DNA from: Nitrospirota bacterium
Lineage (GTDB): Bacteria; Nitrospirota; UBA9217
NCBI GenBank assembly: GCA_963751455.1
Contig: CAVVUN010000009.1
Coordinates: 64,001 to 128,000, forward strand
DNA length: 64,000 nt
Reading direction: 5' to 3'
The notes beneath the pieces were generated by a model. It saw only the letters and a program-made list of their open reading frames with translations, searched no databases and was not told where the DNA came from. Below, piece after piece: positions 512-32,417 of this stretch; position 1 is the stretch's first letter; each line of letters opens with the position of its first letter. A program made the translations under genes and the position numbers.

Positions 512-732
512 CTAACCCGGACAAGCCGGAACTAAAACCTTGGAACCGCGAAGGCGCGAAGGTCGCGAAGAAAACCTTGCAAGTCTTGAATTAAAACAAA
601 ATCTTTGTTTTGATGTCCTTCGCGTTCGCTTGTGCCCAGCGCATGTGAGTGCTTGCCGCGAATGCAGGGCATCGCGCCTTCGCGGTAAATATTCTTCCCA
701 TTTTGAGAAGGATTTGATTTGTAACAGACTAA
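512..732 (+). mobile_element. Non-autonomous repeat element (MITE-like), copy 1; CTAA at both ends
   Basis: Left end CCTAACCCGGACAAGCCGGAAC and right end TTCTTCCCATTTTGAGAAG match the reverse complement of 12074-12255; internal CGCGAAG inverted repeats. Confidence 0.7.
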
Positions 733-753
733 ACAGATATTAAAGGAGGTCTT

Positions 754-2307
754 ATGTTCAACATGGGTTTATGGGTCCTGCCGATCGCGGCACTGATCAT
801 ACTTGTAGTATCAACGGTTGTGTTCCTGGCATCGCGGTACAAACGGTGTCCCTCGGACATGATCCTCGTGGTGTACGGAAAGGTTGGGGAAGGGCAGTCG
901 GCCCGGTGCATCCACGGCGGAGGCGCCCTGGTTTGGCCGCTGATCCAGGACTCGGCGTACATGAGCCTCACCCCGATCACCATCAGCATCCCGCTCCAGA
1001 ACGCGCTTTCGCTCCAGAACATCCGCATTAACGTCCCGAGCACCTTCACCGTCGGCATCAGCGTTGATAAGAGCACCATGAACAACGCTGCTGAACGGCT
1101 CCTGAACCTTCCGCCCCAGCGCATTGAGGACATGGCCAAGGAGATCATCTTCGGCCAGTTGCGCCTGACCGTGGCATCGCTTACGATCGAGCAGATCAAC
1201 CAGGACCGGGAAAGCTTTCTCGAGTCCATCAGGAAGAACGTGGAGCCGGAACTGAACAAGATCGGCCTGTACCTCATCAACGTGAACATCACGGACATTA
1301 CCGACGAATCTGACTACATTCAGAGCATCGGGAAGAAGGCGGCCTCGGAAGCCATTAACCGCGCCCGCGTCGATGTCGCGGAGCAGGACAAGATGGGCGC
1401 GATCGGCCAGGCCGTGGCCAACCGGGACAAGGAGATCAAGGTCGCCGAGAATACGGCAGAGTCGGAAAAGGGAAAGAAGCGGGCCGATGCGGACCGCCGC
1501 GTATTCGTACAACAGCAGGAGACTGCGGCATCGATCGGCGAAGCGGACGCCAACCGGGAGAAGGAGATCCGGATCGCCGAGAACGTGGCCATGTCCGAAA
1601 AGGGAAAGAAAAAAGCTGAAGCTGACCGCCGCGTGTATGTGCAGGCGCAGGAAGCGGAAGCAGTCACGGGCGAGAACAAGGCCAAGGCTGATATCGCGGC
1701 AACCAATGCCGAACTCGCCATGCGTCAGGCAGAAGCGCTCCAGAAGGGCGAGGTCGCCCGGCGCGAGGCTGAGGTCGAAATCCAGAAAGCCCAGTACCGC
1801 GCGGAACAGGAACGCCTGAACGCAGAGGAAGTGGTAAAGCAAGAGATAGGCAAAAAGAAGATTGAGATTGCAGCAGAGGCAGAGGCAGAGAAGACGCGCA
1901 GAGAAGCAAAGGGTGTAGCGGACGGCATCCTGCTCAAGTACGAAGCAGAGGCCAAGGGTATCAGGCAGGTGCTCGAGAGCAAGGCCGCAGGGTATCAGAA
2001 CCTGGTCAAGAGCTGCAACGGCGACGCCAGGGCGGTGGCAACGCTGCTCATGACCGAGAAGATCGAGCAGATCGTGGCCATGCAGGTGGAGGCTATCAAG
2101 AACATCAAAATCGACAAGGTCACGGTCTGGGATTCAGCAGGCGGCCATGGCGACGGCAGTTCCTCAACGTCGAGCTTCCTTTCGAGCCTCGTGCGAAGCA
2201 TCCCGCCGCTCCAGGATGTGGCCAGGATGGCGGGAGTCGAACTTCCGAGTTATCTTGGGGCGATGACGGAGAAGACAGAAGGGGAGAAGGAAGGCAAGAC
2301 AAATTGA
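754..2307 (+). CDS. Flotillin/SPFH (band 7) family protein
   Basis: N-terminal TM, SPFH domain, AEA-rich coiled coil with an internal duplicated segment (ANRDKEIKVAEN/ANREKEIRIAEN); GGAGG RBS. Confidence 0.93.
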   Translation: MFNMGLWVLPIAALIILVVSTVVFLASRYKRCPSDMILVVYGKVGEGQSARCIHGGGALVWPLIQDSAYMSLTPITISIPLQNALSLQNIRINVPSTFTVGISVDKSTMNNAAERLLNLPPQRIEDMAKEIIFGQLRLTVASLTIEQINQDRESFLESIRKNVEPELNKIGLYLINVNITDITDESDYIQSIGKKAASEAINRARVDVAEQDKMGAIGQAVANRDKEIKVAENTAESEKGKKRADADRRVFVQQQETAASIGEADANREKEIRIAENVAMSEKGKKKAEADRRVYVQAQEAEAVTGENKAKADIAATNAELAMRQAEALQKGEVARREAEVEIQKAQYRAEQERLNAEEVVKQEIGKKKIEIAAEAEAEKTRREAKGVADGILLKYEAEAKGIRQVLESKAAGYQNLVKSCNGDARAVATLLMTEKIEQIVAMQVEAIKNIKIDKVTVWDSAGGHGDGSSSTSSFLSSLVRSIPPLQDVARMAGVELPSYLGAMTEKTEGEKEGKTN

Positions 2308-2523
2308 TATGACAGGGAGACTGTTTTCGTCGATGTCAGGGAGGACCGTGTAGTTCTATTCGGCAGCGTAGGCCAGGACAGGCGAAGTAACAGCGGAATT
2401 CGGTTATGAGTGATGCCCCAAAATGGCATTTTACCTTGCCTTTTCAGTGTATTTGTAATAATCTTATGAGTGAGAATGTGCTGCGGCCAAATATGGATTT
2501 TCTGATGGTCGCTGAGGGAAACC

Positions 2524-2784
2524 GTGCCGGAACTAAGCAGATTTTTTGGCATCATTATAGCCATGTTTTACGATGATCATAACCCTCCGCACTTTCACGC
2601 CCGCTATGGCGGCTATAAAGCTTCAATCAGCATCAATGACTTTGCCGTACTCGATGGTTTTCTGCCTCCCCGGGCATTGGGGCTTGTAATGGAATGGGCG
2701 GATATTCACAAGGATGAACTCATGGCCGCTTGGAACCTGGCAAGGGAGAATAAACCTCCGGCCCCGATTGAGCCGCTGAAGTAA
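2524..2784 (+). CDS. DUF4160 family protein (putative toxin)
   Basis: MPELSRFFGIIIAMFYDDHNPPHFHARY signature. Confidence 0.88.
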   Translation: MPELSRFFGIIIAMFYDDHNPPHFHARYGGYKASISINDFAVLDGFLPPRALGLVMEWADIHKDELMAAWNLARENKPPAPIEPLK

Positions 2785-2794
2785 GGAGTGTGTT

Positions 2795-3085
2795 ATGTAT
2801 GACCTCATCGAAGCAAAATATATAGACGGATACGTGTTGGAGTTGGTTTTTGAAAACGGCAAGAAGGGCATGTTTGATTTTTCGAGTTATGTGAAAAAGG
2901 GCGGCGTGTTCGGCAGGTTTTCTGATCTTGCCTACTTCAAGAACTTCTTCGTAAACAAAGAATTAGGCGTTTTGTGCTGGCCGGATGGATTGGATATAGC
3001 GCCGGAAACGCTCTATCATAAGGCAACAGGGGAACCGCTTCCCGCATGGATGACAGTAGGAAAGCAGCCGCGGGTGAAGGGATAG
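2795..3085 (+). CDS. DUF2442 family protein (putative antitoxin)
   Basis: LELVFENG...WPDGLDIAPETLY signature; paired with DUF4160. Confidence 0.88.
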   Translation: MYDLIEAKYIDGYVLELVFENGKKGMFDFSSYVKKGGVFGRFSDLAYFKNFFVNKELGVLCWPDGLDIAPETLYHKATGEPLPAWMTVGKQPRVKG

Positions 3086-3138
3086 TGTTTTAGAGAGACG
3101 GACGTAGGGAATGGAGCGATAGCGTAAATATCAGCACG

Positions 3139-3187
3139 AAGCCGGTTGGAAATGAGGAAATTCATCATTAACCGGCTTTTTCTTTTC
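3139..3187 (+). terminator. Long hairpin with U-tract, copy 1
   Basis: AAGCCGGTT...AACCGGCTT TTTCTTTT; near-repeat at 4009-4053. Confidence 0.6.
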
Positions 3188-3271
3188 AATCGACTGGAAT
3201 AAGTTTCGCTTGTCATCACAGTTCGGTTTCTTGTATACTTGCTTCAATCTTAGCCCTACCAGGAGCCTGCT

Positions 3272-3970
3272 ATGGAAGAAAAAGACTTTCAACGGATTGA
3301 GCAATTGATCGGCAGGGCTGTAAGCTCCGAAGTTGGCAAGGCAGTAAAGGCTGAAATCGGAAGTGTTAGAGAAGAGATAAAGGCTGTCAGGGGTGAAGTA
3401 GCGGGCGTCGCAGAGGGTCTTAACACCGTAAAGGCTCAAGTCGGGAGTCTGGCAGAGGAACTTAATACTGTAAAAGCTAAAGTCGGGAGCGTTGCAGAAG
3501 AACTTAATACCGTAAAAGTTCAAGTCGGTAGCGTAGCAGAAGAACTTAATACAGTAAAAATTCAAGTCGGTAGTGTGGCAGAAGAACTTAATACTGTAAA
3601 AGCTCAAGTCGGTAGCGTAGGAGAAGAACTTAATACCGTAAAAATTCAAGTCGGTAGTGTAGCAGAAGAACTAAATACCGTAAAAGCTCATGTCGGGAAC
3701 GTAACAGAAGAAATACATACAGTGAAGTCGCAGCTTGTCAGTTTTAAGGATGAAATAAAAGAAGATTTCCGTGTACAAATCGGCATTCTTTCTGAAGATT
3801 TTCAACAAAAGCTGCAACTGGTCGCGGAAGGGCATCAAATGCTGTCTGAAAAAATGGACAGGATGCACGATGATTTGACCGGGAAGATCGATGCCGTCAC
3901 CGGGGACCTGGCCGCACATCGGGCTGACACTGAAGGCCACAAACGAGGATACATGATAAAGGAACCGTAA
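3272..3970 (+). CDS. Coiled-coil protein with 14-aa tandem repeats
   Basis: 232-aa ORF with AGGAG RBS; 8 units of VAEELNTVKxQVGS. Confidence 0.8.
   Translation: MEEKDFQRIEQLIGRAVSSEVGKAVKAEIGSVREEIKAVRGEVAGVAEGLNTVKAQVGSLAEELNTVKAKVGSVAEELNTVKVQVGSVAEELNTVKIQVGSVAEELNTVKAQVGSVGEELNTVKIQVGSVAEELNTVKAHVGNVTEEIHTVKSQLVSFKDEIKEDFRVQIGILSEDFQQKLQLVAEGHQMLSEKMDRMHDDLTGKIDAVTGDLAAHRADTEGHKRGYMIKEP
3407..3742 (+). repeat. 42-bp coding tandem repeat, about 8 units
   Basis: GCAGAAGAACTTAATACCGTAAAA..CAAGTCGGTAGC repeated. Confidence 0.92.
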
Positions 3971-4008
3971 TTGATCGAAGACGCCTGATTATTGAAAAAA
4001 AGAACACA

Positions 4009-4730: not shown

Positions 4731-4925
4731 ATGAAGTCTTCTGTTAAAATGACAACCATACGGCTTGATATGAAGCTTGCGAACGAGGCGGTGAAAACGC
4801 TCGGAGCAAAGAACAAGAGCGAAGCGGTTCATATGGCGTTAAGAGAGGTGGTGGAGCTCAAGAAGTTCAAGAACTTGATGGCGGCATACGGTGGGAAACT
4901 GAAATTCGAGGCCCATGGCAGGTAG
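4731..4925 (+). CDS. vapB: VapB-type antitoxin
   Basis: TTIRLD..L..EA......KSEAV..AL RHH pattern; overlaps PIN gene. Confidence 0.85.
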   Translation: MKSSVKMTTIRLDMKLANEAVKTLGAKNKSEAVHMALREVVELKKFKNLMAAYGGKLKFEAHGR

Positions 4926-5325
4926 GATCGTTATTTTCGATACGTCCGTCTTTATTGACCATTTGCGGACGAACAAGTACAGAGAAGAGTTCTCCGTAGT
5001 GAGCGGCCTTATCCGGAACTCGGCGGTCGTGCTCGCGGAACTTCGGCGGGGCGCGACCCGGCAAGATGAGCTCTCTTTTATCAATACCCTGATGCAAAAT
5101 CACCCGATACTGACGCCGACGGAAAAGAACTGGGTTGAATCAGGAGAAATTCTGAGCAAGCTGCATCGCGAGCAAGGTTATAGCCCGGAAAAACTCCGGG
5201 ATTTGCATTTCGATGTTCTTATCGCACTAACCGCACGCAATTTCGGCGCTACTGTCGTTACCTCCAATACCTCGGATTTCGAGTTGATACGGCGCTGTAA
5301 GTCGTTCACGCTGGAGGTCTGGTAA
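4915..5325 (+). CDS. vapC: VapC PIN-domain toxin
   Basis: IFDTSVFID, LAEL..G, DVLIALTA, TSN..DF motifs. Confidence 0.9.
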   Translation: MAGRIVIFDTSVFIDHLRTNKYREEFSVVSGLIRNSAVVLAELRRGATRQDELSFINTLMQNHPILTPTEKNWVESGEILSKLHREQGYSPEKLRDLHFDVLIALTARNFGATVVTSNTSDFELIRRCKSFTLEVW

Positions 5326-5554
5326 TCCGGTACGCTTTTTCTTGAGCCTCGTTTATCCGATTTTATCAAAAAACGCGCTGAAGACCACGGGCGTAAGCCC
5401 GTGGATGAAAGCGTACCAGCCGTAGGCTGGTAATGTTTTAATGTGATACAATGGCGGCATGGAAATTAGACATAGTGCTCATGGTGCCTATCATCACCAG
5501 TATCACATAGTATGGATTCCCAAATATCGGAAACGGATTTTAAAAGGGGAGTTA

Positions 5555-6662
5555 TTAACGGTCCCATAATAGAAACAACATTAAACCGCGTACTTGGTTG
5601 TTTCGTTATTGAAGTAAGCCCGCACACGGTCGGGTGATTTCTGGATAAATCGCAGGTGGCTTATTACCGCCCCATGCATTTGATCGCGCGAGGTAATAAC
5701 CTGTTGGCCGATTGCGTTATTCTTCAGATCGTTCCAGACCCGCTCGTCGGGGTTCAACTCAGGTGAATAGGGCGGTAGAAAAAACAGTCGAAAGCGCTTC
5801 TTAATGGATTCAACAAATTTCGAAACCTTTTTGGCCTTATGGGCAGGATGCCCATCGACAATCAGAAAAATCATTCGATCAGTGCCATGAATCAATCGTT
5901 TGATAAACTCAATAAATTGCTGCGCTCCTACCCGCCCCTTGACGACCATGAAGCGGAATTCTCCTTGTGCGCTTACCGCCGAGATCATATTCAGACTAAA
6001 GCGCGCTCCTGTGCTGCTCACAACGGGAGTCTTGCCTTTTACTGCCCAGGTGGTGCCTGCATGATGATCAGAGCGAACACCAGCTTCATCTCCAAAGAAT
6101 ATTTGCGCCTTTTCTTTGCGTGCAAGGCTGCGAATCTTCGGATATTCTTTCTCCAGCCAGCGCTGAACTTCCTCCGGTTTTTGCTGATAGGCCCGCCAGA
6201 CAGGACGCTGCGGCGTCAGTCCCAGTTGCGCCAACAAGCGGCACACAGAAGACTTGCTCAATCGCACACCGAATCTCTGATAGATTATCTGGCCGATCAT
6301 CTTTGCCGTCCACAAGGCGTAGGTAAACTTCATCTGAAGAGGGTTCTTCATCGTCACGGTGCGATAGATCCATTGCATGGCTTTAGCGTCCAATTTCGTA
6401 GGGCGTCCGCCGCGCTTGCTTGCGTCCAGAGCGCCCCAGCCGCCGTTGCGGTATCGAGACAGCCATCCATAGATGGTTACCCGGTGAATACTCAGTGCTT
6501 TGGCTACAAGCTCAGGGCTTTGACCTTCCTGCACACTGGCTACCGCACGTTTTCTCAGTTCTGTCAGAGTCTTGTGATCAAGTCGTCTCGCATCTGTCTT
6601 TTTCATGCGAAACAGCATAGCATAAGTGCGTAATTATGTAAACACTATTTTGAGACAGTTAA
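5555..6662 (-). mobile_element. IS630-family insertion sequence
   Basis: Imperfect 18-bp TIRs (TTAACGGTCCCATAATAG / TTAACTGTCTCAAAATAG) flanked by TA duplication. Confidence 0.93.
5581..6618 (-). CDS. IS630 transposase
   Basis: HTH plus DDE (FGDEAG, IVDGHPAH, LPPYSPELNPDE). Confidence 0.95.
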   Translation of the reverse strand: MLFRMKKTDARRLDHKTLTELRKRAVASVQEGQSPELVAKALSIHRVTIYGWLSRYRNGGWGALDASKRGGRPTKLDAKAMQWIYRTVTMKNPLQMKFTYALWTAKMIGQIIYQRFGVRLSKSSVCRLLAQLGLTPQRPVWRAYQQKPEEVQRWLEKEYPKIRSLARKEKAQIFFGDEAGVRSDHHAGTTWAVKGKTPVVSSTGARFSLNMISAVSAQGEFRFMVVKGRVGAQQFIEFIKRLIHGTDRMIFLIVDGHPAHKAKKVSKFVESIKKRFRLFFLPPYSPELNPDERVWNDLKNNAIGQQVITSRDQMHGAVISHLRFIQKSPDRVRAYFNNETTKYAV

Positions 6663-7150
6663 TAAAGCAGTTTGTAGAGAAGCGATTGCACGATATTGAT
6701 ACGTATCATCCGGAAGTAGAAATTGAGCGGTACAGCATTCAGGAGGATCATGTACATCTGATAATCATCATTCCGCCAAAATATGCAGTGTCGGCGATCG
6801 TCGGAAAGATCAAGGCAAATACGAGTAGGGAAATAAGAAAACATTTCGATTGGATCAAGAGAGTATATTGGAGAAATGAGTTTTGGTCCCCTGGGTTCTT
6901 TTCTTCAACGGTAGGAATAAACGAAGAGGTAATCAAGAGGTACGTGGAGTTTCAAGAAAAGGTTGATAAAGGGCAGTTGAAGTTTGGGTTTTAAAAATAA
7001 GTGCCACGGGCGTAAGCCCGTGGGTATCTACTTGCGTCCAAGCTCTTTTTAAGATGATTAATGGTTTAAACATCTAAGGCGCATCGGCGGTTTTGTTCTT
7101 GAAAACCTCGTCCTTATAAGATATTATCTTACTATAGCTATATCCCTTGA

Positions 7151-7393: not shown

Positions 7394-8088
7394 AGCTTTG
7401 GATCGTCGAAAGCGGTCGTATTCGTATTCATCAAAGTGAAGAGACTGAAGAATAACAAATCGCCGGCACACCTCGCCCGTATCGTAGTTCCCGTAATCAC
7501 AGTCCTCCTTCTTTTTCGGTTCCTCTCGCCACCTCTCAGGGACACCGTCAGTTTCTCCCAGGCGATCTATGACCGGAGCGGAAAGCTGCTTCGTCTGACG
7601 CTCTCCCGGGATGATAAGTACCGCCTCTGGCTACCGCTTAAATCGATATCTCCTGTCCTGGTCAAAGCGACGCTCTTGCACGAAGACAAATGGTTCCGAT
7701 TTCATCCGGGTGTGAGTCCAATCTCTCTTGCCCGTGCTGTCTGGCATACCTACATCAAGAAGGACCGGAAAATCGGCGGGTCAACGATCACGATGCAGCT
7801 TGCTCGTATCCGCTATGAAATTAACTCGCGAACGATCACAGGCAAGGCGGCGCAGATATTTGCTGCTCTCTGGTTGGAGCTTCTTTATTCCAAGAATGAT
7901 ATCCTCGAAGCTTATCTCAACCTTGTGCCGTATGGCTTGAATATCGAAGGGGCAGGGGCGGCAAGCCTTATTTACTTTTATAAGAACGCAGACAAGCTTA
8001 TTCTGTCTAACGCGATTACCTTGAGCGTGATTCCGCAGAGCCCGGCTCGCAGAATTCCTACTTATCTGGAAGTAAGTAATCGGAAAGA

Positions 8089-8197
8089 AAATCCTCCTCA
8101 ATCCCCCTTTTCGAAAGGGGGAGAAAACAATACCCCCCTTCATTCCCCCCTTGCCAAGAGGGGAAGAGGGGTAACAACGGGGGGAGAGGGGGGATTT
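8089..8197. repeat. C/G-rich palindromic repeat inserted in frame in pbpC
   Basis: AAATCCTCCTCAATCCCCCTTTTCGAAAGGGGGA...GGGGGAGAGGGGGGATTT. Confidence 0.8.
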
Positions 8198-8619
8198 GCA
8201 GGTAAAGACCTTCAGGCTGCCTGCGTCGCACTTTTCGCGAAATGGATCGAGAAAAATCCGAAGGACGGGGACCAAAAGGCTTTCATGGACATGCCCGTTG
8301 TTCTCAAACGTCCTTCTGACCTGCCGTTCCTGGCTCCGCACTTTGTGAACGAGGTGCGTAAGCTCAATCCCTTTGACCCCGTGCTTCATACCACGCTCGA
8401 TCTTAAACTGCAGAAACTTATTGAGCGGCATGTCCGCAGCTACGTTGATGGGAACAGGCAGAAGGGAATCAATAATGCTGCCGTGCTTCTTGCCGACGCT
8501 CGTACAATGGAAGTTAGGTCCCTGATCGGGTCGGCAAATTTCTTTGATCCCAGGATCGACGGACAGGTGAATGGCGCCTAGGCTAAACGTTCGCCCGGCT
8601 CTGCACTCAAGCCTTTTAT

Positions 8620-8783
8620 CCTAAAAACGGCATTTGAACACGGATGAACACGGAAACAGCGGATCAAAACAATGTGATAGAGCAAAAAGCCATCTCGCCT
8701 TTTGGGTGAATCCATTACTGTTCGTAACTTCCTATAAATCCGTGTTGATCAGATTTTATCCGTGTCCAACTGCTTTTTTCAGG
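8620..8783 (+). mobile_element. 164-bp MITE, copy 1, 5-bp TSD TTTAT
   Basis: Ends CCTAAAAA / TTTTTTCAGG; reverse-complement copy at 56833-56996. Confidence 0.92.
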
Positions 8784-9227
8784 TTTATCTACGGTTTAGG
8801 CATAGACCAGGGGATTATCCATCCTCTCACCATGCTGAAGGATGCGCCCATGAGCTTCGGTGCCTATAATCCTGAGAACTTTGATAATGATTTTGCCGGA
8901 CCGATCAAGGCATGGGATGCCCTGGTTAAAAGCAGGAATGTTCCGGCCGTTTATATCGTATCGCGTCTTTCTCCGCCTGGATTGCACGGATTTCTGCTCA
9001 AGGCCGGGATTACGCGCATGAAGGACGAATCCTTTTACGGGATGTCTCTGGCTTTAGGAAGTTCGGAAGTGACCATGGAGGAGCTGGTAAAACTCTATGC
9101 CATGCTTGCGAATGGGGGAGTTCTAAAGCCGCTCAAATTTTTCAGTGCATCTTTCTCTATCAGTAAAGTCTCGCACCGTCATTCCGGGCTTGACCCGGAA
9201 TCCAGTGATAATCTTGACAAGACGCTG

Positions 9228-11132
9228 ATAGGGGTAGGGACGACGCATTGATTTGCGCCGCCCCTCCCTCCGAACCGGACTGGCGGATTTCCCGCATCCG
9301 GCTCTCCAGTTGGTGGTTTTACCTTACCAAGGACTGACGTAGCTGCGACAAGGGCGTCTTCAAGGCTGAACAGCCCATGTGCATGAAAGAATTTGTTTGG
9401 CCAGCGCATATGATCGTATCCAAGGCTTATTCCCTGCCGCTTGCTGCGTTTGCGCAGTATGCTCCGCAAGCGCCTTCTTACCCAGCCGTCGAGCGGCGGA
9501 AAGGTCCATTTGTCGGCTATGTTTGAAATATTCAAACCAGCCCCGCAGGGTGTGGTTGACCTTCTTCGATGATTTCAGCCAGGCTCTTCCCGTTGCTGCG
9601 TTTCGTCTTCTCTCGTATGGCGTCTTTGAGTTTCTTCAGGCTCTTCTGGCGAGGGCAACCGCATTCCCTGCTCGAAGTGGTAGCCGAGAAAGTCAAATCC
9701 GCCTTCCGGCGTCGTCGTATCCACCAGCCGCGTTTTGTCGGGGTGCAGCGTCAGTCCCCGTTCCGTCAGCATCGTGCGCACTTTCTCCATTGCGGAGCTT
9801 GCTTCCTCCCGGCTGCGGCACAGGATCACGAAGTCGTCCGCGTAGCGGATCATCTGATACCCCGCCTGCGCCATGGCGACATCCACCGGATGGAGATAGA
9901 GGTTTGCAAGCAACGGGCTGATCACTGCTCCCTGCGGCGTCCCGGCTTCGGGCGTCCACAGCTTCAGTTCTTCCAGGATTTCCTGCTTCAGGAATGCCTC
10001 GATCAGCTCCAATACGCGCCCGTCGGCGATATACTTGCGTACCTCGGCCATGAGCGGTTCGTGGGGGATGCTGTCGAAGTATGCCTTGATGTCCGCATCC
10101 ACCACATGCGTATAGCCCGCCTCCAAGAGTTGATCCACTTCCCGCAAGGCGTCTTTGCATCCGCGTTTCGGACGGAATCCATAGCTGTGTTCGACGAACT
10201 CCTTCTCAAGATGGGCTCGATCACCATGCGCACCGCCGTCTGTGTTACGCGGTCCCGGACCGTCGGTATGCCCAACGGTCTCTTTTCCTTGCTGCCCGGC
10301 TTGTCGATATACGTCCGCCGGATGGGGCGGGGACAGTGGCTGTCCGTGCGTATTTCCTCTTCCAAGCGCGCAAGATTCGTCGCGTAGTTGCTCTCAAACG
10401 CCTCGATGCTTTGATGGTCCGAGCCGGCCGCCCCTTTGTTCGCCCTGACTTTAAGCCAGGCCGCTTCCAGGGTGGTCGGTCTGTATACCTTATCGATCAG
10501 GCTGAACCAAACGCCTCCTTTCACCCCTCGTTCGAGGGCCTCCAGCATGCGGTCCGTCCACACCGATCGTTCCACCCAGTCCCATCGTCTGGGGCCGGCT
10601 TCTCCCGTTTGTTTAGTCCCGCCGATGCGGGACACTGCCGCGGGTTGTGCTTCGTTCGGCGCGGCCTTCACGCATCCACCTTCCTGCACCCCTTGGCTCC
10701 ACGGGCATTACCCCGCTTCTTCGCTACTATGGGGCTCTGACTCCTGCCCAACTGACTCTTTCAGGGCAATGAACACTCCTTGCGCCGGGCAGGTCTCCCT
10801 GGTTCACCTCGCGCAACCTTCCATGCATTCCGTCACCAACCACCCGGCGCGCCCTGTCCTCGCTTTCTCCTGTCCGCCCAGCGTGACAGGCTTCCTGGGT
10901 CGTGCCGCCCGCCGGGGCTGCCGCACTTGCCAGGTCTGGACTTCGCCATGAATCGCAGGCTCGTCGCTACGCACGGCCGAATCGTGTTCGTCGTTATCCT
11001 ACGGACTGCATGTTCGCCTCCGGTTGCTCTCCACCCCGCCTCGCGGCGACGCAGTTACCTTCGGCTACCGGGAGTGGGCATCTCCCGGGAGAGGACTTTC
11101 ACCTCTCCGATCGCGCCTGCTCCCAGGCGCAC
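9228..11132 (-). mobile_element. Group II intron (class C type), antisense to pbpC
   Basis: 5' GTGCG at 11132, domain V GAGCCGGATGCGGGAAATCCGCCAGTCCGGTTC, 3' CCCTACCCCTAT; inserted right after a stem-loop. Confidence 0.93.
9319..10689 (-). pseudogene. ltrA: Intron-encoded reverse transcriptase/maturase, frameshifted
   Basis: RPLGIPTVRDR, GTPQGAVISPLLANLYL, RYADDF and maturase segments fall in three ORF fragments; 3' boundary approximate. Confidence 0.88.
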
Positions 11133-12073
11133 GATTCCCGCTTTCGCGGGAATGACGAACAAGATAATACGCGACTTCTCAGCAAGGAAGCCTCATACCT
11201 CGTGCTGGACATGCTCGCAACGAACCCGCCTCCCTATCAGGGATTCCGCAATGAATGGTTGCGAGATTCGACTAAGGTTCCATGGAAAACAGGCACTTCC
11301 TTCGGTTTCCGTGACGCGTGGTCAATCGGAATCGTCGGTCCTTATGTGCTTGCGGTCTGGATTGGGAACTTCGACGGGGAAGGCAACCCTGCATTCATAG
11401 GACGGGAGGCTGCTGCTCCATTGTTTTTTGAGATCATTGACTCCCTGAAATCACAGGATTCCGAGATAGGTAATTTCTCGGGTCACGGTCTCGCTGACTT
11501 GAACCTGTCCAAAGTGGAGGTCTGTGCTCTATCCGGCGGTCTTCCGGGACCCGACTGCGCTAACCGGGTCTCCACCTGGTTCATTCCAGGCAAGTCGCCC
11601 ATTGTGAAATGTGATGTTCACAGAAGAATATACATTAATACGCGAACTGGCCTGCGAGCCTGCATTGACGGCGCGCCGGGGACCAGGTCCGCGGTATATG
11701 AGTTCTGGTCCTCAGATCTTCTGGCGATCTTCCTTCAGAGCGGCATTACGCGTCGCGTGCCTCCGCCTTATGAACCGGGATGCAGCATGGAGAAAACATC
11801 GACAAAGGGGGCCGGCCCTCAAATCACCTCTCCCCGGGAAGGGGTGGTCTACAGCCTAAGGGCGGCATCGCTGAAGGACGAGCGGGTACCGCTGACCGCA
11901 GTTACTGATGCGGATACGCGTATTGTGCATTGGTTTGCAAATGAAGAGTATCTGGGCTATTCCGAGAGCGGAAAGACGTTCTTCTGGACGCCCAGGTCAG
12001 GGAAGTTCGCGATGCGCGCTGTTGACGACCAGGGCCGATCAGCTGTGAGGGATGTGGTCACAAGGATCGTAGA

Positions 12074-12255
12074 TTAGTTACTAAAAAGTAAAATTCTTCT
12101 CAAGATGGCAAGAAAATTCAGCCACAGAGGTCACAGAGCACACAGAGAACGGCTTGAAACAATTTCATAAATCCAGGCTTTGCTTTATATTTCTCCTCTG
12201 TGAACTCTGTGTGCTCTGTGGCAAAAAGGTTTTGGTTCCGGCTTGTCCGGGTTAG
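12074..12255 (-). mobile_element. Non-autonomous repeat element, copy 2; TTAG at both ends
   Basis: Ends match 512-732; interior has CACAGAG/CTCTGTG inverted repeats. Confidence 0.7.
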
Positions 12256-13751: not shown

Positions 13752-13918
13752 GGTCCATTCGAAACCACGTGATGAAGGTAAACAAGATTTGAACCACGGG
13801 TTCGCTTCGCGAACACACAGTGAAGCGGGATAAAAAATGGGAAGTACCCAAGTTAATCTGTGTTTATCCGTGTGTCGCGATTCATTGCGACCTGTGGTTA
13901 CAAAAGAATACAAACAGG

Positions 13919-21922: not shown

Positions 21923-22965
21923 AGGAAAGCATTCTGCTGCTCGGACATGGAAGCCCTAAAAAAGACGCAAACAATCTCGAGCAGCTCGCGAAGATGCTGC
22001 ACGGTATGCTGCATGCCGGATGCGCGGAAGACTGCGTCAAGGTGGCGTACCTGCAGTTTGCGGAGCCCGGTATCCCGGATACGATCAAAGAGTGTGTGCA
22101 GCAGGGCGCGAAGAAGATCATCCTTCACCCGTTCTTTCTCACCGCTGGGATGCACGTGACAAAAGACATCCCGGAGATGATCCGAGATGCGCAGAAGTTG
22201 TATACTGGTGTGGAATTCGTGTATACCGAGCCGCTCGGCATTCACGAAAAGCTGGCTCATATCGTGCTGGAACGCATCAGTGCCGCGGAACAGCTTGCGC
22301 CTGAGGACATCGAAAAGAGGAGTTTCGATATTCTTTCAGCAGAAGCCGGCCTGGGCAGTGTTCCCCCGGATCGTTTGCCGATCGTACAGCGCGTTATTCA
22401 TGCAACCGCTGATTTTGACTTTAAGAACACACTTACGTTCCACCCGGATGCCGTAATAAAGGGGATCGAGGCGATTAGAGCCGGGAAGGATATCCTGACC
22501 GATGTCGAAATGGTGCGGACGGGCATCAATAAAAAGTGGCTTTCAAGGTGGGGCGGAAAAGTTGTCTGCGGGATTCAGGATGCGCGATCCACCCTGCACT
22601 CGCGCGAGCACTCGTCAACGCTGGGCCCAGGCACGATGCAGGATCACGACAAGAGAACGAGATCGGAGATCGGGATCGAGACCGCATTGCGGGAGAACGG
22701 CAACATCGGGATCATAGCCATCGGAAACGCGCCTACAGCGCTTATCAGAACGATTGGCCTTCTCGAAGACTCCGAACTCCCGATTCGGAACTCCGAACTG
22801 CTGATAATCGGTGTTCCCGTGGGCTTTGTTAAAGCTGTTGAATCAAAGGCCCTCCTTGCGGCCCAGCGGTTTCCTTTCATCACGGCTTTGGGCAGAAAAG
22901 GCGGCACGCCGGTAGCAGTAGCAATCGTTAACGCGTTATTGAAAATGGCAGGAGAGGGTAAGTGA
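21919..22965 (+). CDS. cbiX-cbiC: CbiX cobaltochelatase / CbiC precorrin-8X methylmutase fusion
   Basis: LLGHGS..., PFFLTAGMHVTKDIP then IEKRSF, RVIHATAD, GNAPTAL, GRKGGT. Confidence 0.93.
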   Translation: MKESILLLGHGSPKKDANNLEQLAKMLHGMLHAGCAEDCVKVAYLQFAEPGIPDTIKECVQQGAKKIILHPFFLTAGMHVTKDIPEMIRDAQKLYTGVEFVYTEPLGIHEKLAHIVLERISAAEQLAPEDIEKRSFDILSAEAGLGSVPPDRLPIVQRVIHATADFDFKNTLTFHPDAVIKGIEAIRAGKDILTDVEMVRTGINKKWLSRWGGKVVCGIQDARSTLHSREHSSTLGPGTMQDHDKRTRSEIGIETALRENGNIGIIAIGNAPTALIRTIGLLEDSELPIRNSELLIIGVPVGFVKAVESKALLAAQRFPFITALGRKGGTPVAVAIVNALLKMAGEGK

Positions 22966-26223: not shown

Positions 26224-27523
26224 AAAGCTGCGGTCCGGCTATACAACCGGCGCGTGTGCTGCTGCTGCGGCAAAGGCGGCGACAGTACTGCTAATGCGGA
26301 GCGCGGAGTGCGGGGACTTGCACCCAGTGCTAACGAGTGCGAATGCGCGAGTGCAGGGTGTGCGTAGTGAAGAGGAAATCCAGGAGGTATCAATTCCTTT
26401 TCCTGATGGGAGCAGAGTACAATTTGCTGTTCGTAACTCCTCACTCCGAACTCATAACTCCGAACTGATTTCATCGGCCTCAGTGATTAAAGACGCTGGA
26501 GATGATCCGGATGTGACGCATGGTGCGGAGATTATAGCTACAGTCCGGTTTGTGGAGTCGGGACTAAAAAATGAAGAATGTCCGCAAATCGTAATAAAAG
26601 GCGGTAAAGGTGTCGGCAGGGTAACCAAGCCCGGCCTGGCAATCCCAGTTGGCGAACCGGCGATCAATCCCGTGCCGAGGAAGATGATCCGGGAAGCAGT
26701 GATGGAAGCAATAACGGAATCCGTAAATCAACCCATCCCCCTCCCAACCTCCCCCTTGAAAGGGGAGGAACTCAATAAATTCCCTCCCCTTCAAGGGGAG
26801 GGTAAGGGTGGGGATGGGTTGGCTGCCACTCCGCACTTGGAAGTCACCATCTCCGTGCCTGCGGGTGAGGAACTAGCAAAAAAGACACTGAACCATCGCC
26901 TCGGCATTGTCGGGGGAATATCGATCCTCGGCACTACCGGTATCGTCCGTCCCGTATCCAGGGAAGCATATACGGCAACCATTACCGCGGGGATGGATGT
27001 CGCAAAGGCCATGGGTCATAGTGTCGTGGTCCTTTCGTCTGGGAGGACTTCCGAGAAAGCGCACATGAAGAAGTTTGCTTTTCCTGACGAATCCTATGTT
27101 ATGATGGGTGACTATCTCGAATTTTCGCTCATTGACGCGAAGAACCACGGCTTTAGCTCTATCCATCTGTGCGCGCAATGGGCAAAGATGATAAAGACGG
27201 CAATGTCCACACCCCAGACTCATGTCCGGCACGGAGCGATTGAGGCGACGAATGCGGCTGCTTTTCTGAGGTTCCTTGGCGTGGATGTGCCGCCGGCAAA
27301 AGAGTTCAATACGGCCCGGGAAATCTTTGATTACATAAACGCCGCATCATCCAAGCCGCTTGCGCCCAGCGTTGACGAGTGCTTGCGCGAGTGCAGGGTG
27401 CATACCGCGCTTGCCGCGGTTTGCGCAGCGGCAAAACAATACGCTGAGCGGATCACATCAGGCATCCCGGTCATCGTTCATCTCGTGTCTTATGAGGGAA
27501 AAATCATTGCAGCCAGCGAATAA
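26207..27523 (+). CDS. cbiD: Cobalt-precorrin-5B C1-methyltransferase
   Basis: LRSGYTTGACAAAA, KDAGDDPDVTHG, GISILGTTG; carries several in-frame repeat inserts. Confidence 0.95.
   Translation: MALKNKKLRSGYTTGACAAAAAKAATVLLMRSAECGDLHPVLTSANARVQGVRSEEEIQEVSIPFPDGSRVQFAVRNSSLRTHNSELISSASVIKDAGDDPDVTHGAEIIATVRFVESGLKNEECPQIVIKGGKGVGRVTKPGLAIPVGEPAINPVPRKMIREAVMEAITESVNQPIPLPTSPLKGEELNKFPPLQGEGKGGDGLAATPHLEVTISVPAGEELAKKTLNHRLGIVGGISILGTTGIVRPVSREAYTATITAGMDVAKAMGHSVVVLSSGRTSEKAHMKKFAFPDESYVMMGDYLEFSLIDAKNHGFSSIHLCAQWAKMIKTAMSTPQTHVRHGAIEATNAAAFLRFLGVDVPPAKEFNTAREIFDYINAASSKPLAPSVDECLRECRVHTALAAVCAAAKQYAERITSGIPVIVHLVSYEGKIIAASE
26729..26821. repeat. 93-bp palindromic repeat inserted in frame in cbiD
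   Basis: CAACCCATCCCCCTCCC...GGGTGGGGATGGGTTG; 31 codons. Confidence 0.88.
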
Positions 27524-28841
27524 ACTTTCTGTGATAGGCATCGGGTACCGGCCGCTCTGTAAGCGCGCGCAAGAGCTTCTTCTCGGCGCCGAGGTCATTC
27601 TTGCTTCAACACGGCTGCTTGATGTGTTTACCCGTTATGCTGAATATGAAGCCGTTAAACACCGGATCAAGGTCATAAACAAGGTGCCTGATACGATCGA
27701 GTTTATTAAAGAACGCTTTTCTCATTCAGGATCGCAACCCGTAGCTCTCCTCGCGTCCGGAGACCCGCTGTTCTTCGGCATTGGAAGGAAGATACGGGAA
27801 GAGTTCGGGAAGGAAGCGGTTGAGATCCTGCCGGATCTCTCGAGCGTTCAGGAGGCGTTTGCCCGGATTTATGAACCCTGGGATGATGCATTTTTCATAA
27901 GCCTGCACGGCGGCCCGGACATCTCGAAGAGACGCAAGCTGCCCTATGAGGCCGCGGACATCCCCGGGCTGCTCCAGCGATACGGCAAGCTTGGAATACT
28001 TACCGATTCGGAAAACAATCCGGTTCTTATAGCAAAGGTTCTCGAATCTGCAATTCACAGTCCGCAATCCGCAATTGTGATGTCCGTCTGCGAAAGGCTC
28101 GGCTATCCGGATGAAAAGATCACCCAAGGGACTCCTGAAGAGATCGCGGCTAAATCTTTTTCAGACCCAAATGTGGTTATAGCGCAGGAGTCAGGAGTCA
28201 CCCTGCACTCGCGCAAGCACTCGTCAACGCTGGGTGCAGGCAGGAGTTACCCTGCGCTCGCGCAGGAGACAGGAATTATATTCGGATTGCGGGAAGATGA
28301 GATCGATCATGATCGCGGGCTGATCACCAAAGACGAGGTGAGGGCAGTCACGCTTCATAAACTTTACCTTCCGGAACATGGAGTTCTCTGGGACATCGGG
28401 GCGGGATCAGGCTCCGTATCGCTCGAGGCGGCGCGTCTTTGTCCTGGAATGCAGATCTTTGCCATAGAAAAAGAACAGCATCGGATCGATACAATAAATG
28501 CAAATTTGCAGAAGTTCGGCATTCGGAATGTATCAATCATCCAGGGAAGTGCGCCTGATGTTCTTCAGAACATTCCTGCTCCGGATCGCGTTTTCATCGG
28601 CGGGAGCGGCGGAAGTCTCGATTCCATCATAGATCTGGTGAAAGAGAAAATGCATGAAGGTATTGTTGTTATAAACGCAGTAACCCTCGATACACTCAAT
28701 AAGGCGGTCCCGGCCCTGGAAAAGGCCGGGTTCTCAGTGGATGTTACGGAGATATCCGTATCGAGATCAAGGACAGTGGCAGGCAAGCGGCATATGAGCG
28801 CGTTAAACCCTGTGTTTATCGTGAAGGGCAAACGGAGTTAA
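27507..28841 (+). CDS. cbiET: Bifunctional CbiE/CbiT methyltransferase/decarboxylase
   Basis: VIGIG, LASGDPLFFGIG, ITKDEVR, WDIGAGSGS; TTG start inferred. Confidence 0.92.
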   Translation: MQPANKLSVIGIGYRPLCKRAQELLLGAEVILASTRLLDVFTRYAEYEAVKHRIKVINKVPDTIEFIKERFSHSGSQPVALLASGDPLFFGIGRKIREEFGKEAVEILPDLSSVQEAFARIYEPWDDAFFISLHGGPDISKRRKLPYEAADIPGLLQRYGKLGILTDSENNPVLIAKVLESAIHSPQSAIVMSVCERLGYPDEKITQGTPEEIAAKSFSDPNVVIAQESGVTLHSRKHSSTLGAGRSYPALAQETGIIFGLREDEIDHDRGLITKDEVRAVTLHKLYLPEHGVLWDIGAGSGSVSLEAARLCPGMQIFAIEKEQHRIDTINANLQKFGIRNVSIIQGSAPDVLQNIPAPDRVFIGGSGGSLDSIIDLVKEKMHEGIVVINAVTLDTLNKAVPALEKAGFSVDVTEISVSRSRTVAGKRHMSALNPVFIVKGKRS

Positions 28842-28846: not shown

Positions 28847-29650
28847 ATGGATGGAAAACTCTACGTTATTGGAATAGGGCCCGGCGATCCCGAACTCATG
28901 ACGGTAAAGGCAGTAAGACTGCTGAAGCAAGCGCCGTGCATCTTTGTTCCTAAAGGACGCGAAGAAGGGAGCAGTCTCGCGCTCTCGATCGTCCAGAAAG
29001 CTATTGCACTCGACGGCAAAGAGATTGTCGAGGCGTACTTCCCGATGATGAAAACCGCCCCTCACGCCCCGCACTCGCGCTCCGCACTCGTAACGCCGGG
29101 TGCAAGCCCCGGCCCTCTCCCAGGAGGGAGGGAGATGTCGACGCGAAGTGCGGACGCGAACGAACTCAATGCCAGCTGGAACGAAACGGTCGAGGCTGTT
29201 CTCAACAGGCTGGACAGGGGCATCGATGTCGCGTTCATTACGATCGGAGATCCGGGAATATACAGCACGTTTTTCTATCTCTATGACCGACTGCTCGAGC
29301 AAAAGCCCTCACTTGCAGTTGAGATTATCCCAGGGATATCGTCGATCAATGCTGCAGCTGCACGGGCAGGGTTGTACCTGGGGCTCGGCAACGACCGGAT
29401 TGCCATACTTCCGGCGAATTACCTGGACAGCCTCCAGGAGACCCTGGAGAAGTTCGATACCGTGGTTTTGATGAAGGTGAACAAGGTGTTCGATACGGTT
29501 AAGGACATGCTTGTGAAGATGAACCTGGTGGAGAACGCCGTTTATGTTGCCCGTACCGGGATGGATGACGAGCGGGTGTGTAACGATATCCGGAAGGTGA
29601 CGCAGGAAGAATTGAACTATTTCTCTCTGGTTATAGTGAGGAAGCGATGA
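28847..29650 (+). CDS. cbiL: Cobalt-precorrin-2 C20-methyltransferase
   Basis: GIGPGDPELMTVKA, GDPGIYSTF, VVLMKV. Confidence 0.93.
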   Translation: MDGKLYVIGIGPGDPELMTVKAVRLLKQAPCIFVPKGREEGSSLALSIVQKAIALDGKEIVEAYFPMMKTAPHAPHSRSALVTPGASPGPLPGGREMSTRSADANELNASWNETVEAVLNRLDRGIDVAFITIGDPGIYSTFFYLYDRLLEQKPSLAVEIIPGISSINAAAARAGLYLGLGNDRIAILPANYLDSLQETLEKFDTVVLMKVNKVFDTVKDMLVKMNLVENAVYVARTGMDDERVCNDIRKVTQEELNYFSLVIVRKR

Positions 29651-30405
29651 AAGCAAAGGTCATATTCATAGGCGCAGGACCCGGAGACCCGGAATTGATA
29701 ACCGTGAAAGGCAGAAAGCTTCTCGATTCTGCTGACGTTGTGATCTATGCGGGAAGTCTCGTGAATCCCGCGCTGCTGAACGGCATCAAGGCCAGGATCT
29801 TTGATTCAGCTCACATGGACCTGGACGAGATCGTCGCAATAATGAAAAAAACTGCGGAAGACAACAGGATGCTCGTGCGTCTTCACACTGGGGATACCTC
29901 GTTCTACAGTGCAATTTCCGAGCAGATAGAACGGCTCCGCGAACTCGATATTCCGTACGAGGTCGTACCCGGAGTATCATCAGCCATGGCCGGGGCGGCC
30001 ATACTCGGCCAGGAACTGACAATTCCCGAGATCAGCCAGACCGTGATCTTTACCAGGATGGAAGGGCGAACCCCGGTGCCGGCTTCCGAACGACTCGGTT
30101 CACTCGCTTTTCATCGTGCTACCATGGCGATCTTCCTGAGCGTCGGCATGATTGAAAAGGTCCGTGATGAACTGCTCCAGGGCTATCCAGAAAATACGCC
30201 CGTTGTGATCATCGAGAAGGCAACATGGCCCGATCAGAAGGTCATACGGGGAACATTAAAGGAAATTGTGTCCCTGGTTACGAACGCAGGCATCATGAAG
30301 ACGGCGCTTATCTACGTGGGTGAATCCCTTCGAGCATCGGAAAAATCCATGGGAAAAGAATCGAAGCTTTATCATAAGGATTTTAAACATGGATATCGGG
30401 AATGA
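29647..30405 (+). CDS. cbiF: Cobalt-precorrin-4 C11-methyltransferase
   Basis: GAGPGDPELIT, YAGSLV, RLHTGD, SKLY...F.H. Confidence 0.95.
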   Translation: MKAKVIFIGAGPGDPELITVKGRKLLDSADVVIYAGSLVNPALLNGIKARIFDSAHMDLDEIVAIMKKTAEDNRMLVRLHTGDTSFYSAISEQIERLRELDIPYEVVPGVSSAMAGAAILGQELTIPEISQTVIFTRMEGRTPVPASERLGSLAFHRATMAIFLSVGMIEKVRDELLQGYPENTPVVIIEKATWPDQKVIRGTLKEIVSLVTNAGIMKTALIYVGESLRASEKSMGKESKLYHKDFKHGYRE

Positions 30406-30477
30406 CGTGGTATGGAGCGAGCCAAACGCGTTGGCGTGTAAAATCACGGCGACATGGTCGTCTTGATCCAAAAAAGA

Positions 30478-31515
30478 ATGAAAAAATCTGCGATCCTGTA
30501 TATAACTGAGAACGGCCGGACGTTGGCAGAGCGCCTGAAGGATCTGTACTCTGATGCCGACATTATAAAGTTTGTCCCCGGTGTTGTCATGGATTTGTGG
30601 GGCAAGTATGAACGCTTTGTGTTCATTATGGCGGCGGGCATTGTTGTCCGGACCATAGCTCCGCTGCTTAAGGATAAGAGGTCGGATCCCTCGGTAGTAG
30701 TGCTGGACGAACAGGGAAAATTCGCGATTAGCCTCGTGAGCGGGCACCTGGGCGGAGCGAACGAGCTGGCAAAGGAGATTGCCGGTTTCCTTGGAGGTGA
30801 AGCAGTCATTACGACGGCGTCAGATGTAAACGAGTTGCCGCCGGTAGACCTCTGGGCCAGGGACAACAACCTTATCATTGAGAACTGGGAGGCGCTTCCG
30901 CAGGTCGGTACGCGTTATGTGAATAACGGAGGTTTAAGGGTCTATAGCGATGTCCCTCTGAAATTTCCCGACCAATTTCTCAGAGTTGCGGATCCCCGGT
31001 TCGCTGATGTTATCATTACAGCGCGGCTCGACGTATACGCCGGCGCCCCGAGATGCACGATAACAGGAGAAGGATGCTCCACCGGTTCATGCCGGGTGAA
31101 GGGACAAATCTATCTGCGGCCTGTTAATCTTGTCCTCGGAATCGGCTGCAACAGCGGCACGTCCGGGGATGAGATTCGGAATGCCGTGCACCGCGTGCTT
31201 GCAGAACATAATCTCGCCTTTGCCTCCGTTCACTCCGTTTCGACCATTGAGATCAAAGGCAGTGAGCCGGGACTCAAAATGTTTATTCAGGAAAATGACT
31301 TTTCTCTGCGTACTTTCAGCATCCACGAGCTGAACAGTGTGGAAGGGATAGAAAAATCGGAAGCAGTGTTCAAGGCCACCGGAGCCTACGCTGTTGCAGA
31401 ACCGGCGGCAATGCTTGCCGCAGGAACGGACAGTGTGCTCGTGCCGAAACAAAAAAAGGGAAACGTGACAGTGGCAGTTGCGGAAATACATAATGTGGAA
31501 GCGAGTGAAGAATGA
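30478..31515 (+). CDS. cbiG: Cobalt-precorrin-5A hydrolase
   Basis: MAAGIVVRTIAP...DP, SGHLGGAN, GIGC, VAEPAA. Confidence 0.94.
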   Translation: MKKSAILYITENGRTLAERLKDLYSDADIIKFVPGVVMDLWGKYERFVFIMAAGIVVRTIAPLLKDKRSDPSVVVLDEQGKFAISLVSGHLGGANELAKEIAGFLGGEAVITTASDVNELPPVDLWARDNNLIIENWEALPQVGTRYVNNGGLRVYSDVPLKFPDQFLRVADPRFADVIITARLDVYAGAPRCTITGEGCSTGSCRVKGQIYLRPVNLVLGIGCNSGTSGDEIRNAVHRVLAEHNLAFASVHSVSTIEIKGSEPGLKMFIQENDFSLRTFSIHELNSVEGIEKSEAVFKATGAYAVAEPAAMLAAGTDSVLVPKQKKGNVTVAVAEIHNVEASEE

Positions 31516-32417
31516 AAATACAAAATTCATCGGCCAAAGGTACTGTATACATCGTCGGCACCGGGCCGGGAAGTCTTGACCATATTACGCCCGCAGCCCG
31601 AAAGGCGATCAGCAAATCGGATGTTATTGTCGGGTACGGGACCTATCTCGACCTGATTCGTGAGCTTCTGCAGGACAAGGAGGTCCTCTCCACGGGAATG
31701 ACCCAGGAGGTAGACCGGTGTCGCAAAGCAGTCGAGCTTGCACAAGGGGGCAAGACAGTTGCAGTCATCAGCGGCGGTGACCCGGGAGTCTACGCCATGG
31801 CGGGGCTCGTATTTGAGATTCTCAGGAGTCAGGAGTCAGGAGACACCCATCACTCGCGCGAGCACTCGTCAACGCTGGGCGCAGACAGGAGTCAGGAGTC
31901 AGTAGGGAAAAACTTCACACTCCGCCCGCGCCCAGCGACTGCGAGTTCTTGCGCGAGCGCAGGGTGCAATCGGCAATTGCCTCTCGTCGAAGTTATTCCC
32001 GGCATCTCGGCGCTCAATGCGAGCGCTTCCCGCCTGGGTGCTCCGCTGATGCACGACTTCGCCTGCATCAGCCTCTCGGACAGGCTTACGCCATGGGACA
32101 TGATCGAAAAGCGGCTTGAAGCAGCCGCGGCAGCGGACTTTGTCATTGTCCTCTATAATCCGCGGAGCAAAGGCAGGGCTGGTCACGTAAACAAGGCACG
32201 GGAGATTATTCTGAAGCACCGCTCGTCGGCGACTGTTGTCGGCATCGTCAAGGGCGCCATGCGGAATAATGAGACAATCATGGTAACGGATCTGCAAACC
32301 ATGAAAGACGACGATATAGATATGCAGACGACTGTTATTATCGGAAATTCGAAAACCTTCGCGTGGAACAACTTTATGATTACGCCCCGTGGATATGACA
32401 ACAAATTCAAAATTTGA
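31512..32417 (+). CDS. cbiH: Cobalt-precorrin-3B C17-methyltransferase
   Basis: VGTGPG, SGGDPGVYAMAG, GAPLMHDF, LYNPRS, TPRGY. Confidence 0.95.
   Translation: MKIQNSSAKGTVYIVGTGPGSLDHITPAARKAISKSDVIVGYGTYLDLIRELLQDKEVLSTGMTQEVDRCRKAVELAQGGKTVAVISGGDPGVYAMAGLVFEILRSQESGDTHHSREHSSTLGADRSQESVGKNFTLRPRPATASSCASAGCNRQLPLVEVIPGISALNASASRLGAPLMHDFACISLSDRLTPWDMIEKRLEAAAAADFVIVLYNPRSKGRAGHVNKAREIILKHRSSATVVGIVKGAMRNNETIMVTDLQTMKDDDIDMQTTVIIGNSKTFAWNNFMITPRGYDNKFKI

Follow-up and report, generated by a model that had tools for sequence, protein, structure and literature searches.

Why should very short repeats in a bacterial genome come to lie inside other repeats? The question is raised by a 64,000-nucleotide stretch of a Nitrospirota bacterium genome (assembly GCA_963751455.1, 5.72 Mb in 15 contigs), in which a cobalamin operon preceded by two cobalamin riboswitches carries copies of a small hairpin element, called E1 here. 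The whole stretch, C9:64001–128000 (contig CAVVUN010000009.1), is referred to as the window, and positions without a contig label are positions in it. An earlier note on this DNA held that most 42-bp copies interrupt another repeat, and proposed a hierarchy in which each repeat serves as a neutral or structured landing pad for the next. We find that the preference of E1 for nesting in other small repeats is well supported across the genome. Gene calls come from a crude open reading frame (ORF) model, and host classes come from our own regular expressions, with slight differences between two classifications. The source genome is G000, and other G and L labels denote the other genomes and loci compared.

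A profile iterated from four window copies gave 230 matches in the genome at E<1 (172 at E<0.01) and 0 in the reversed genome used as a decoy. The matches correspond to 193 loci genome-wide, 147 of them full length (39–46 bp, mode 43). The ends are fixed, with no target duplication and only a one-base ambiguity at the junctions. Positions 1–5 pair with 35–39, positions 7–10 with 33, 32, 27 and 26, and positions 15–16 with 21–20. The hairpin is followed by a 3′ tail of 4 bases (5 bases in 23 copies) that reads CAGG or CAAG(T/A) on the plus consensus. Helix pairs make up 7 of the 8 top mutual-information column pairs among the 112 regular of 140 distinct copies; the 28 irregular copies are left out of this count, and the copies are related, so the changes are not independent events. 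The stem has four nearly invariant mismatches, rich in pyrimidines on the plus consensus, that read G-T, G-A, A-G and A-A on the minus strand. Because they become G-T, tandem G-A and A-A pairs there, the sequence suggests that the minus strand is the recognised form. E1 differs from miniature inverted-repeat transposable elements (MITEs) of the DDE type in that its stem is offset by the 4–5-base tail and no target is duplicated. Short forms of approximately 31–33 bp lack the inner module (C5:38050, C3:101184, C8:198710 and C2:414980), and E1 itself may therefore have arisen by nesting.

The base after E1 is C in 94% of 146 copies, a figure inflated by assigning the 5-base tail wherever the next-but-one base is C (78% uncorrected), and the two preceding bases are mostly C and A. 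The correction is supported by the cbiD copy, which leaves a gap of exactly 45 bp against its orthologues. Among copies from other genomes, selected by a strict pattern, the base is C in 104 of 107. One side of the target has a weak C-N-R-R bias, and a short motif explains little of the enrichment described below.

To count empty counterparts of the occupied sites, 18 bases of each flank were joined, and genome sites aligning across the joint were taken as empty siblings; 83 partial matches (including the window copies at 31844 and 31925) and one contig-end copy were left out. At least 5 dispersed empty siblings were found at 115 of the 146 junctions. The same was true of 16% of intergenic sites matched for 4 context bases (n=1460; 13–20% in ten replicates), of 26, 25 and 29% of sites matched for 6, 7 and 8 bases (584 each), and of 26% (220/838) of sites 40–200 bases from E1 copies. 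The flanks are thus far more repeat-rich than background (115/146 against 16–29%), in agreement with the enrichment that the earlier note had anticipated. Exact 14-mers occur at 25% of junctions against 9% of null sites, and tandem periodicity at 21% against 3%. When similar flanks were collapsed, 52 of the 78 clusters still lay in repeats. Junctions of E1 copies from other genomes, compared with the repeats of this genome, were positive in 60/107 cases (null 24/840). By pattern class, the hosts are 8–10-mer arms (34), heptamer tracts (28), E1 itself (21), a larger element E3 (19), repetitive extragenic palindromes (REPs) flanking RAYT genes (8), CCCCTC palindromes (7) and smaller classes (14), with 15 copies in no class. 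Around ten unrelated host families share the same E1 ends.

The span of the earlier note holds 8 E1 copies, six of 42 bp and one each of 43 and 45 bp; a ninth lies at 36829–36871. All five examples cited in that note are present in the sequence, and 7 of the 8 copies, read by eye, interrupt a recognisable repeat. The claim that most copies do so therefore stands, with lengths of 42–45 bp and with one copy, at 27359, that has 0 siblings and no recognisable repeat around it. The 43-bp copy (629–671, minus strand) lies within the pyrimidine arm of an 8–9-mer inverted-arm repeat (arms at approximately 545–576 and 618–686) with 53 empty siblings. On the plus strand, 42-bp copies are in frame in cbiX-cbiC (22590–22631, degenerate CAGGATG heptamer tract, 7 siblings), cbiET (28199–28240, CAGGAGT tract), cbiL (29065–29106, 10 siblings, CCCCTC palindrome 29058–29133, which we take to be BoxC-like) and cbiH (31844–31885, CAGGAGT tract 31822–31903). 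On the minus strand, cbiD carries two in-frame copies, one of 45 bp with a 5-base tail in a 4-unit GCGGAGT tract (26316–26360) and one of 42 bp (27359–27400) whose host is the one not recognisable as a repeat in this genome. A second 42-bp copy in the same cbiH loop (31925–31966, minus strand) lies within a worn GCGGA(T/G)T tract. The cbiET tract also holds a short E1-like mini-hairpin (28248–28266, plus strand).

Comparison with orthologues revealed the order of insertion. In the loop at residue 36 of CbiD there are 15 aa in one orthologue without a tract, 21–22 aa in four orthologues with a heptamer tract, and 37 aa in this genome, which has both tract and E1; the tract came first and E1 later. 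The exact 15-aa (45-bp) empty site is present in L015, L013 and L018, and the tract has the same length with and without E1. Nearly the same cbiD tract stands empty in G005, a genome without an E1 match, and the cbiET site has a pure tract without E1 in L016 and a pure CAGGAGT tract in G030, which belongs to another family and has no E1 match. Heptamers are present in the orthologues L018 and L003 at the position of the cbiD copy at 27359–27400. The tracts are thus no part of E1, given that orthologous ones stand without it. The cbiX-cbiC loop measures 28 aa (14–19 in 5 orthologues), and the CbiH loop 58 aa (12, 27, 31, 32 and 32 in five orthologues). The gain in CbiH reported in the earlier note is real, but the figure of approximately 50 residues becomes +46 aa relative to the shortest orthologue, 28 of them from two E1 copies. 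Growth of protein loops by accretion is borne out by the steps at cbiD and by in-gene lengths that are mostly divisible by 3: this holds for 7/8 copies deep in genes and 46/122 intergenic ones (p=0.008; a few of the ORFs may be false calls). The tract type at one locus differs between genomes, and since a given loop can carry one type of repeat in one genome and another type in the next, the loops are tolerant. All four copies of an E1 variant with a TCAAC bulge lie in the cobalamin operon. This variant eliminates a stop in one frame, but it is present in an antisense copy too, a hint of local hopping. At 26760–26830, an in-frame CCCCTC-type palindrome adds approximately 22 aa to CbiD where the orthologues have heptamer tracts.

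The proposed hierarchy holds in part: the nesting is real and lopsided, but it is not strict, because E1 lies in E1, copies of E1 and E2 are found within one another, and host-type repeats or MITEs split or cut a few E1 or E2 copies. E1 is nested in E1 in around 20 cases, at three fixed positions and never inverted. E2 is a second hairpin element of approximately 58 bp with a 5′ foot (110 matches at E<0.001; 2 in the decoy at E<1), found in 1 of 57 other genomes. Its 5′ ends (108) lie in E1 (32), after another E2 (31), in the E2 loop (12) or in no host class (33, several of which are worn E1 or E3), and E1 lies within E2 in five cases. Where E2 lies within E1, its 3′ flank is nearly always CTCAT, which could pair with the E2 foot. 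E2 also forms tandem runs (C14:11380–11720 in this genome, L134; loci L136–L143 in G011). A third hairpin element, E4 (31 bp, 8 matches), occurs in E1 and elsewhere. E3 is a dispersed structured element of approximately 250 bp without an Rfam match (for example C15:450620–450900, L132, and C15:245230–245620, L133), and the 19 E1 copies that it hosts occupy several fixed positions, in either orientation; it also hosts some E2. In the reverse direction, a MITE, a CCCCTC palindrome and a REP-bearing element each interrupt E2, and in one arrangement a 5′ part of E1 is followed by a GTAG REP. The deepest nest lies outside the span at 36662–36882 (plus strand). Read by eye, it is a heptamer tract holding a 5′ part of E1, which in turn holds E1, E2 and E2′ at successive levels, and a further E1 (36829–36871) lies within the outer E1.

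What places E1 in repeats? Our leaning, with little more than even confidence, is that E1 is a non-autonomous insertion element, and that an enzyme with a preference for other small repeats moves it as a folded single strand. The enzyme would recognise the minus strand, where G-T, tandem G-A and A-A pairs take the place of the mismatches. Its preferred hosts would be the ends of other units of a repeat plus a small protein (REP-RAYT, NTS-Ssn, GxxExxY arms, four-helix-bundle heptamers and DUF559 palindromes). Several host types in this genome do flank small genes, read by eye (RAYT at 2 loci, GxxExxY, four-helix-bundle and DUF559). According to PMC11893778, SsnA cleaves NTS repeats in single-stranded form. 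Host sites are predicted to be opened or nicked as single strands, and such opening in vivo may be what makes them attractive to E1. Once inside a host, E1 may also spread with it by copying or conversion of the composite, and in the cobalamin genes tolerant loops take up a 21-bp tract first and then E1. The preference is not shared by larger elements: the same junction test places 1/47 insertion sequence (IS)-like elements, with approximate ends, and 2/31 MITEs in repeats. The latter are a family of approximately 194–216 bp with CTAG ends (31 copies, for example C9:19290 and C7:13491) that was used as a control.

The distribution of E1 is narrow. In a 301-genome sample of the phylum, the E1 pattern was found in 28/53 genomes of its own family and in 0/247 others, and public records matching E1 were mostly titled Nitrospirota among the matches listed. 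Identical copies occur in several genera whose cobalamin DNA is approximately 70% identical to that of this genome.

Several results weigh against a dedicated single-strand enzyme. None of the 33 matches to Y1 transposase genes is flanked by E1, the nearest being 491 bp away, and a Y1 match is absent from 7 of the 28 E1-positive genomes (86–98% complete) and present in 24 of the 25 E1-negative ones; E1 may outlast its enzyme. Reverse transcriptase (RT) had no match in 4 of 5 E1-positive genomes. G075, a single contig that is 98% complete, holds 3 E1 copies without a match to Y1, RT, GxxExxY or the four-helix-bundle family. Among the matches listed, no E1 halves were found around a gene, apart from two chance pairs. 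For several gene-flanking hosts, the link to their genes rests on a few loci read by eye, and the IS-like control uses approximate element ends. No complementary covariation, as expected of guide-target base pairing, was seen among the top element-flank pairs, whose signals reflect the association of subtype and host. Energy models leave the strand choice undecided (minus favoured in 87/146 copies with RNA and 62/146 with DNA parameters). Empty E1 sites are no more foldable than null sites in local 80-base folds, in which distant partner arms are not modelled.

The search for a mobiliser extended to GxxExxY and four-helix-bundle genes in 5 genomes and to GIY-YIG and DUF559 flanks, and none was found there; nor was an SsnA-type gene tied to E1. 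ORFs shared within 300 bp of 105 outside loci formed only repeat-derived clusters and pairs. Clustered E1 copies in G169, G119, G018, G186 and G177 were considered as units with a cognate gene, and proved to be repeated composites without one. L127 (G169:C99:19000–28000) is a cassette-like array in which three identical long composites of a repeat and E1, spaced at 1.6–1.8 kb, alternate with short genes. Around 15 of the 33 Y1 matches are related genes of approximately 300 aa bounded by short inverted ends, and these look like a recently active element family. The genome has 3 IS110 matches.

Hitch-hiking would require little targeting. Here E1 would insert rarely and with only a slight preference, and copies that happened to land in mobile or homogenising repeats would be multiplied as composites by copying or short-homology conversion. 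Distant pairs of copies with similar flanks have E1 sequences at least 90% alike in 37/244 cases, against 94/10121 for pairs with different flanks. Subtypes track their hosts (4/4 in one family and 5/6 at one E1 site), loop type is associated with host in other genomes (p=1.5e-5; p=0.75 in this one), and the change of tract type at one locus between genomes also fits. Composite copying thus appears to contribute to the distribution of E1, because similar flanks go with similar E1 and subtypes favour hosts. As the whole explanation we regard it as unlikely: the collapsed flank clusters remain mostly in repeats, around ten host families are used, 30/146 copies have a partner of at least 93% identity in unrelated flanks, and the cbiD tract has the same length with and without E1.

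A bolder form of the single-strand reading is speculative and distinctly unlikely. E1, E2 and E4 would belong to an undescribed class of hyperparasitic "hairpin plus foot" mini-elements, excised as closed single-stranded dumbbells with the 4–7-base foot as the second loop. A single structure-specific enzyme would then splice them into the ends of other repeat-nuclease units.

An RNA route, in which E1 moves as a structured RNA by reverse splicing or template switching, with an RT or a ligase, into transcribed repeats, is improbable. G-U and tandem G-A pairs would suit RNA, the minus strand is slightly favoured under RNA parameters, the window contains an RT-bearing intron, and near-identical copies (the 4 TCAAC copies) cluster in one operon. 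Yet an RT match is present in only 1/5 E1-positive genomes. Rfam gave no gathering-level match over E1 in the window and none at E≤1 in 6 loci with E1, E2 and E3. Orientation relative to transcription is weak (59/97, p=0.04), and no stronger than that relative to GC skew (77/124, p=0.009). Loops of three bases are frequent, at 59 of the 97 that could be classified.

The landing pad of the earlier note comes in two forms. If the pad were merely neutral, E1 would land at N|C anywhere, and selection would remove the copies outside repeats. Neutrality does explain the survival of in-gene copies, 7 of 8 of which have lengths divisible by 3 in loops that hold different repeats across genomes, and E1 neighbourhoods are more repeat-rich than average (26% against 16%). 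However, an approximately 19-fold stronger loss outside repeats (as an odds ratio) would be required, while elements of 0.2–1.9 kb, the IS-like elements and CTAG MITEs among them, persist in unique DNA; because such larger insertions persist, survival alone is a poor explanation of nesting. Gaps of more than 500 bp make up 441 of the 1028 kb of non-coding DNA and yet hold only 37/147 E1 copies. The 312 kb of long multi-copy DNA, which may be younger or include paralogues, hold 0/147. We therefore consider a purely neutral pad quite improbable. A locally structured pad is not borne out either: in 80-base folds the empty sites show no advantage over nulls (p=0.10; p=0.70 within repeats). That E1 and its heptamers or other flanks together make up one larger element, as heptamers on both sides of several window copies might suggest, is refuted by the E1-free tracts at orthologous sites in the E1-negative genomes G005 and G030, with heptamer tracts holding only 28–30 of 146 copies and 462 tracts standing uninterrupted (a loose pattern without a control), and its probability is very small.

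How does E1 relate to known repeats? A literature search by concept rather than by sequence, with most subscription papers outside it, returned nothing describing E1. The closest parallel is the set of elements SDR1–8 of Nostocaceae, reportedly described by Elhai et al. in 2008 (Genome Res 18:1484) as very short dispersed elements with compensatory hairpin changes, lying in heptamer tracts, in minitransposons and in themselves, with the mechanism unknown. SDRs, as reported, and E1 are both short, dispersed hairpins with covariation that nest in heptamers, other elements and themselves. They differ in that E1 is 42–45 bp and SDRs are said to be 21–27, and E1 occurs in one family of another phylum, with around ten hosts and an N|C site. 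Nested mini-repeats would not be new as a phenomenon, the Nostoc SDRs reportedly being known already. Rickettsia palindromic elements (RPEs) insert in frame into tolerant protein loops; they are approximately 105–146 bp, whereas E1 is mostly intergenic (122/146) and enters genes via earlier tracts. RPEs are listed in a table of PMC3184786. Among the SDRs, SDR5 inserts at HIP1 and was not found outside Nostocaceae (PMC5861425), and PMC3116915 names SDRs as a class of short palindromic repeats whose origin is open.

Like E1 read on its minus strand, REP/REPIN-RAYT and IS200/IS605 systems have a mismatched single-strand hairpin with a tetranucleotide foot 5′ of the stem, and REPINs insert into or beside other REPINs (passages of PMC3116915 and PMC8266576). 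E1 lacks the GTAG foot, the C|T site, the doublet and a flanked Y1 gene, and its two ends fall at the foot and at the base of the stem. HUH substrates, as portrayed in PMC8266576, resemble the geometry of E1 (a foot 5′ of an imperfect hairpin and no duplication), but the REP tests fail; the lack of duplication and the weak C-N-R-R bias may or may not point to a non-autonomous element of the IS200/IS605 type. Geobacter multicopy sequences include paired repeats of hepta- and octanucleotides and insertions that keep the frame of genes, and their different families cluster non-randomly (PMC2700814, PMC2996986; Aklujkar et al. 2009, 2010). They share in-frame insertions and heptanucleotide repeats with E1, but the passages compared treat them as regulatory or unexplained, without a nested hairpin element or target rule; supplements may hold similar elements. 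NTS/SRM repeats, with the single-stranded DNA nuclease SsnA (PMC11893778), are a host of E1 and not E1 itself; NTS-type loops hold 1 E1 copy here and 10/107 elsewhere.

Two further cases of nesting in the earlier note involve other elements. Short hairpins are indeed present in both arms of the repeat at 13792–13899, but as swaps for a spacer and not as clean insertions. On the plus strand, a 15-base perfect hairpin (13800–13814) replaces the 4-base spacer of a 9–10-mer repeat arm, and an 18-base hairpin of different sequence (13874–13891) takes the equivalent place in the opposite arm. Both can be placed in a loose set of G-T...A-C hairpins found where this spacer would otherwise stand (24 arms with the spacer and approximately 10 with a hairpin). 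The group II intron at 9228–11132 (minus strand; RF00029, RVT_1, ends) has Domain V/VI, a GTGCG start and an RT ORF in pieces, and it is inserted 3′ of an NTS-type hairpin. IIC introns typically insert after hairpins, and from its hairpin-adjacent site we presume that this intron belongs to the same subclass. It does split a REP-like repeat, in a single event by a different element. The 5′ part of this NTS/SRM-type repeat is at 11133–11157 (minus strand), its last bases resume at 9227 and its partner arm is at approximately 9177–9205; it matches the NTS consensus printed in PMC11893778 letter for letter.

Positions 4915–6994 contain a PIN-domain gene, an IS630-type transposase (5581–6618, minus strand) and an adjoining Y1 transposase fragment (6626–6994); the Y1 gene is apparently interrupted by the IS630-type IS. 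Pieces of a penicillin-binding protein 1C-like gene (transglycosylase, transpeptidase fragment and C-terminal domain) are spread over 7436–12077, around a 9–10-mer arm repeat, the NTS doublet and the intron. An ORF at 3272–3970 has a coiled-coil-like tandem repeat of 14 aa (42-bp period, 7.3 copies) with no relation to E1.

As far as the literature found shows, how repeats of less than 50 bases move is still open. This genome offers a clean test case, with approximately 200 copies, exact ends, a fold backed by covariation, exact empty alleles and controls within the same genome. If the dumbbell reading were true, it would explain mechanistically how SDR-like nesting arises across phyla, and would provide an insertion system of 43 bases that leaves no scar. 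In the cobalamin genes, protein loops have lengthened stepwise, by a tract and then a hairpin, and for annotators such peptides in the B12 enzymes of Nitrospirota are repeat-derived.

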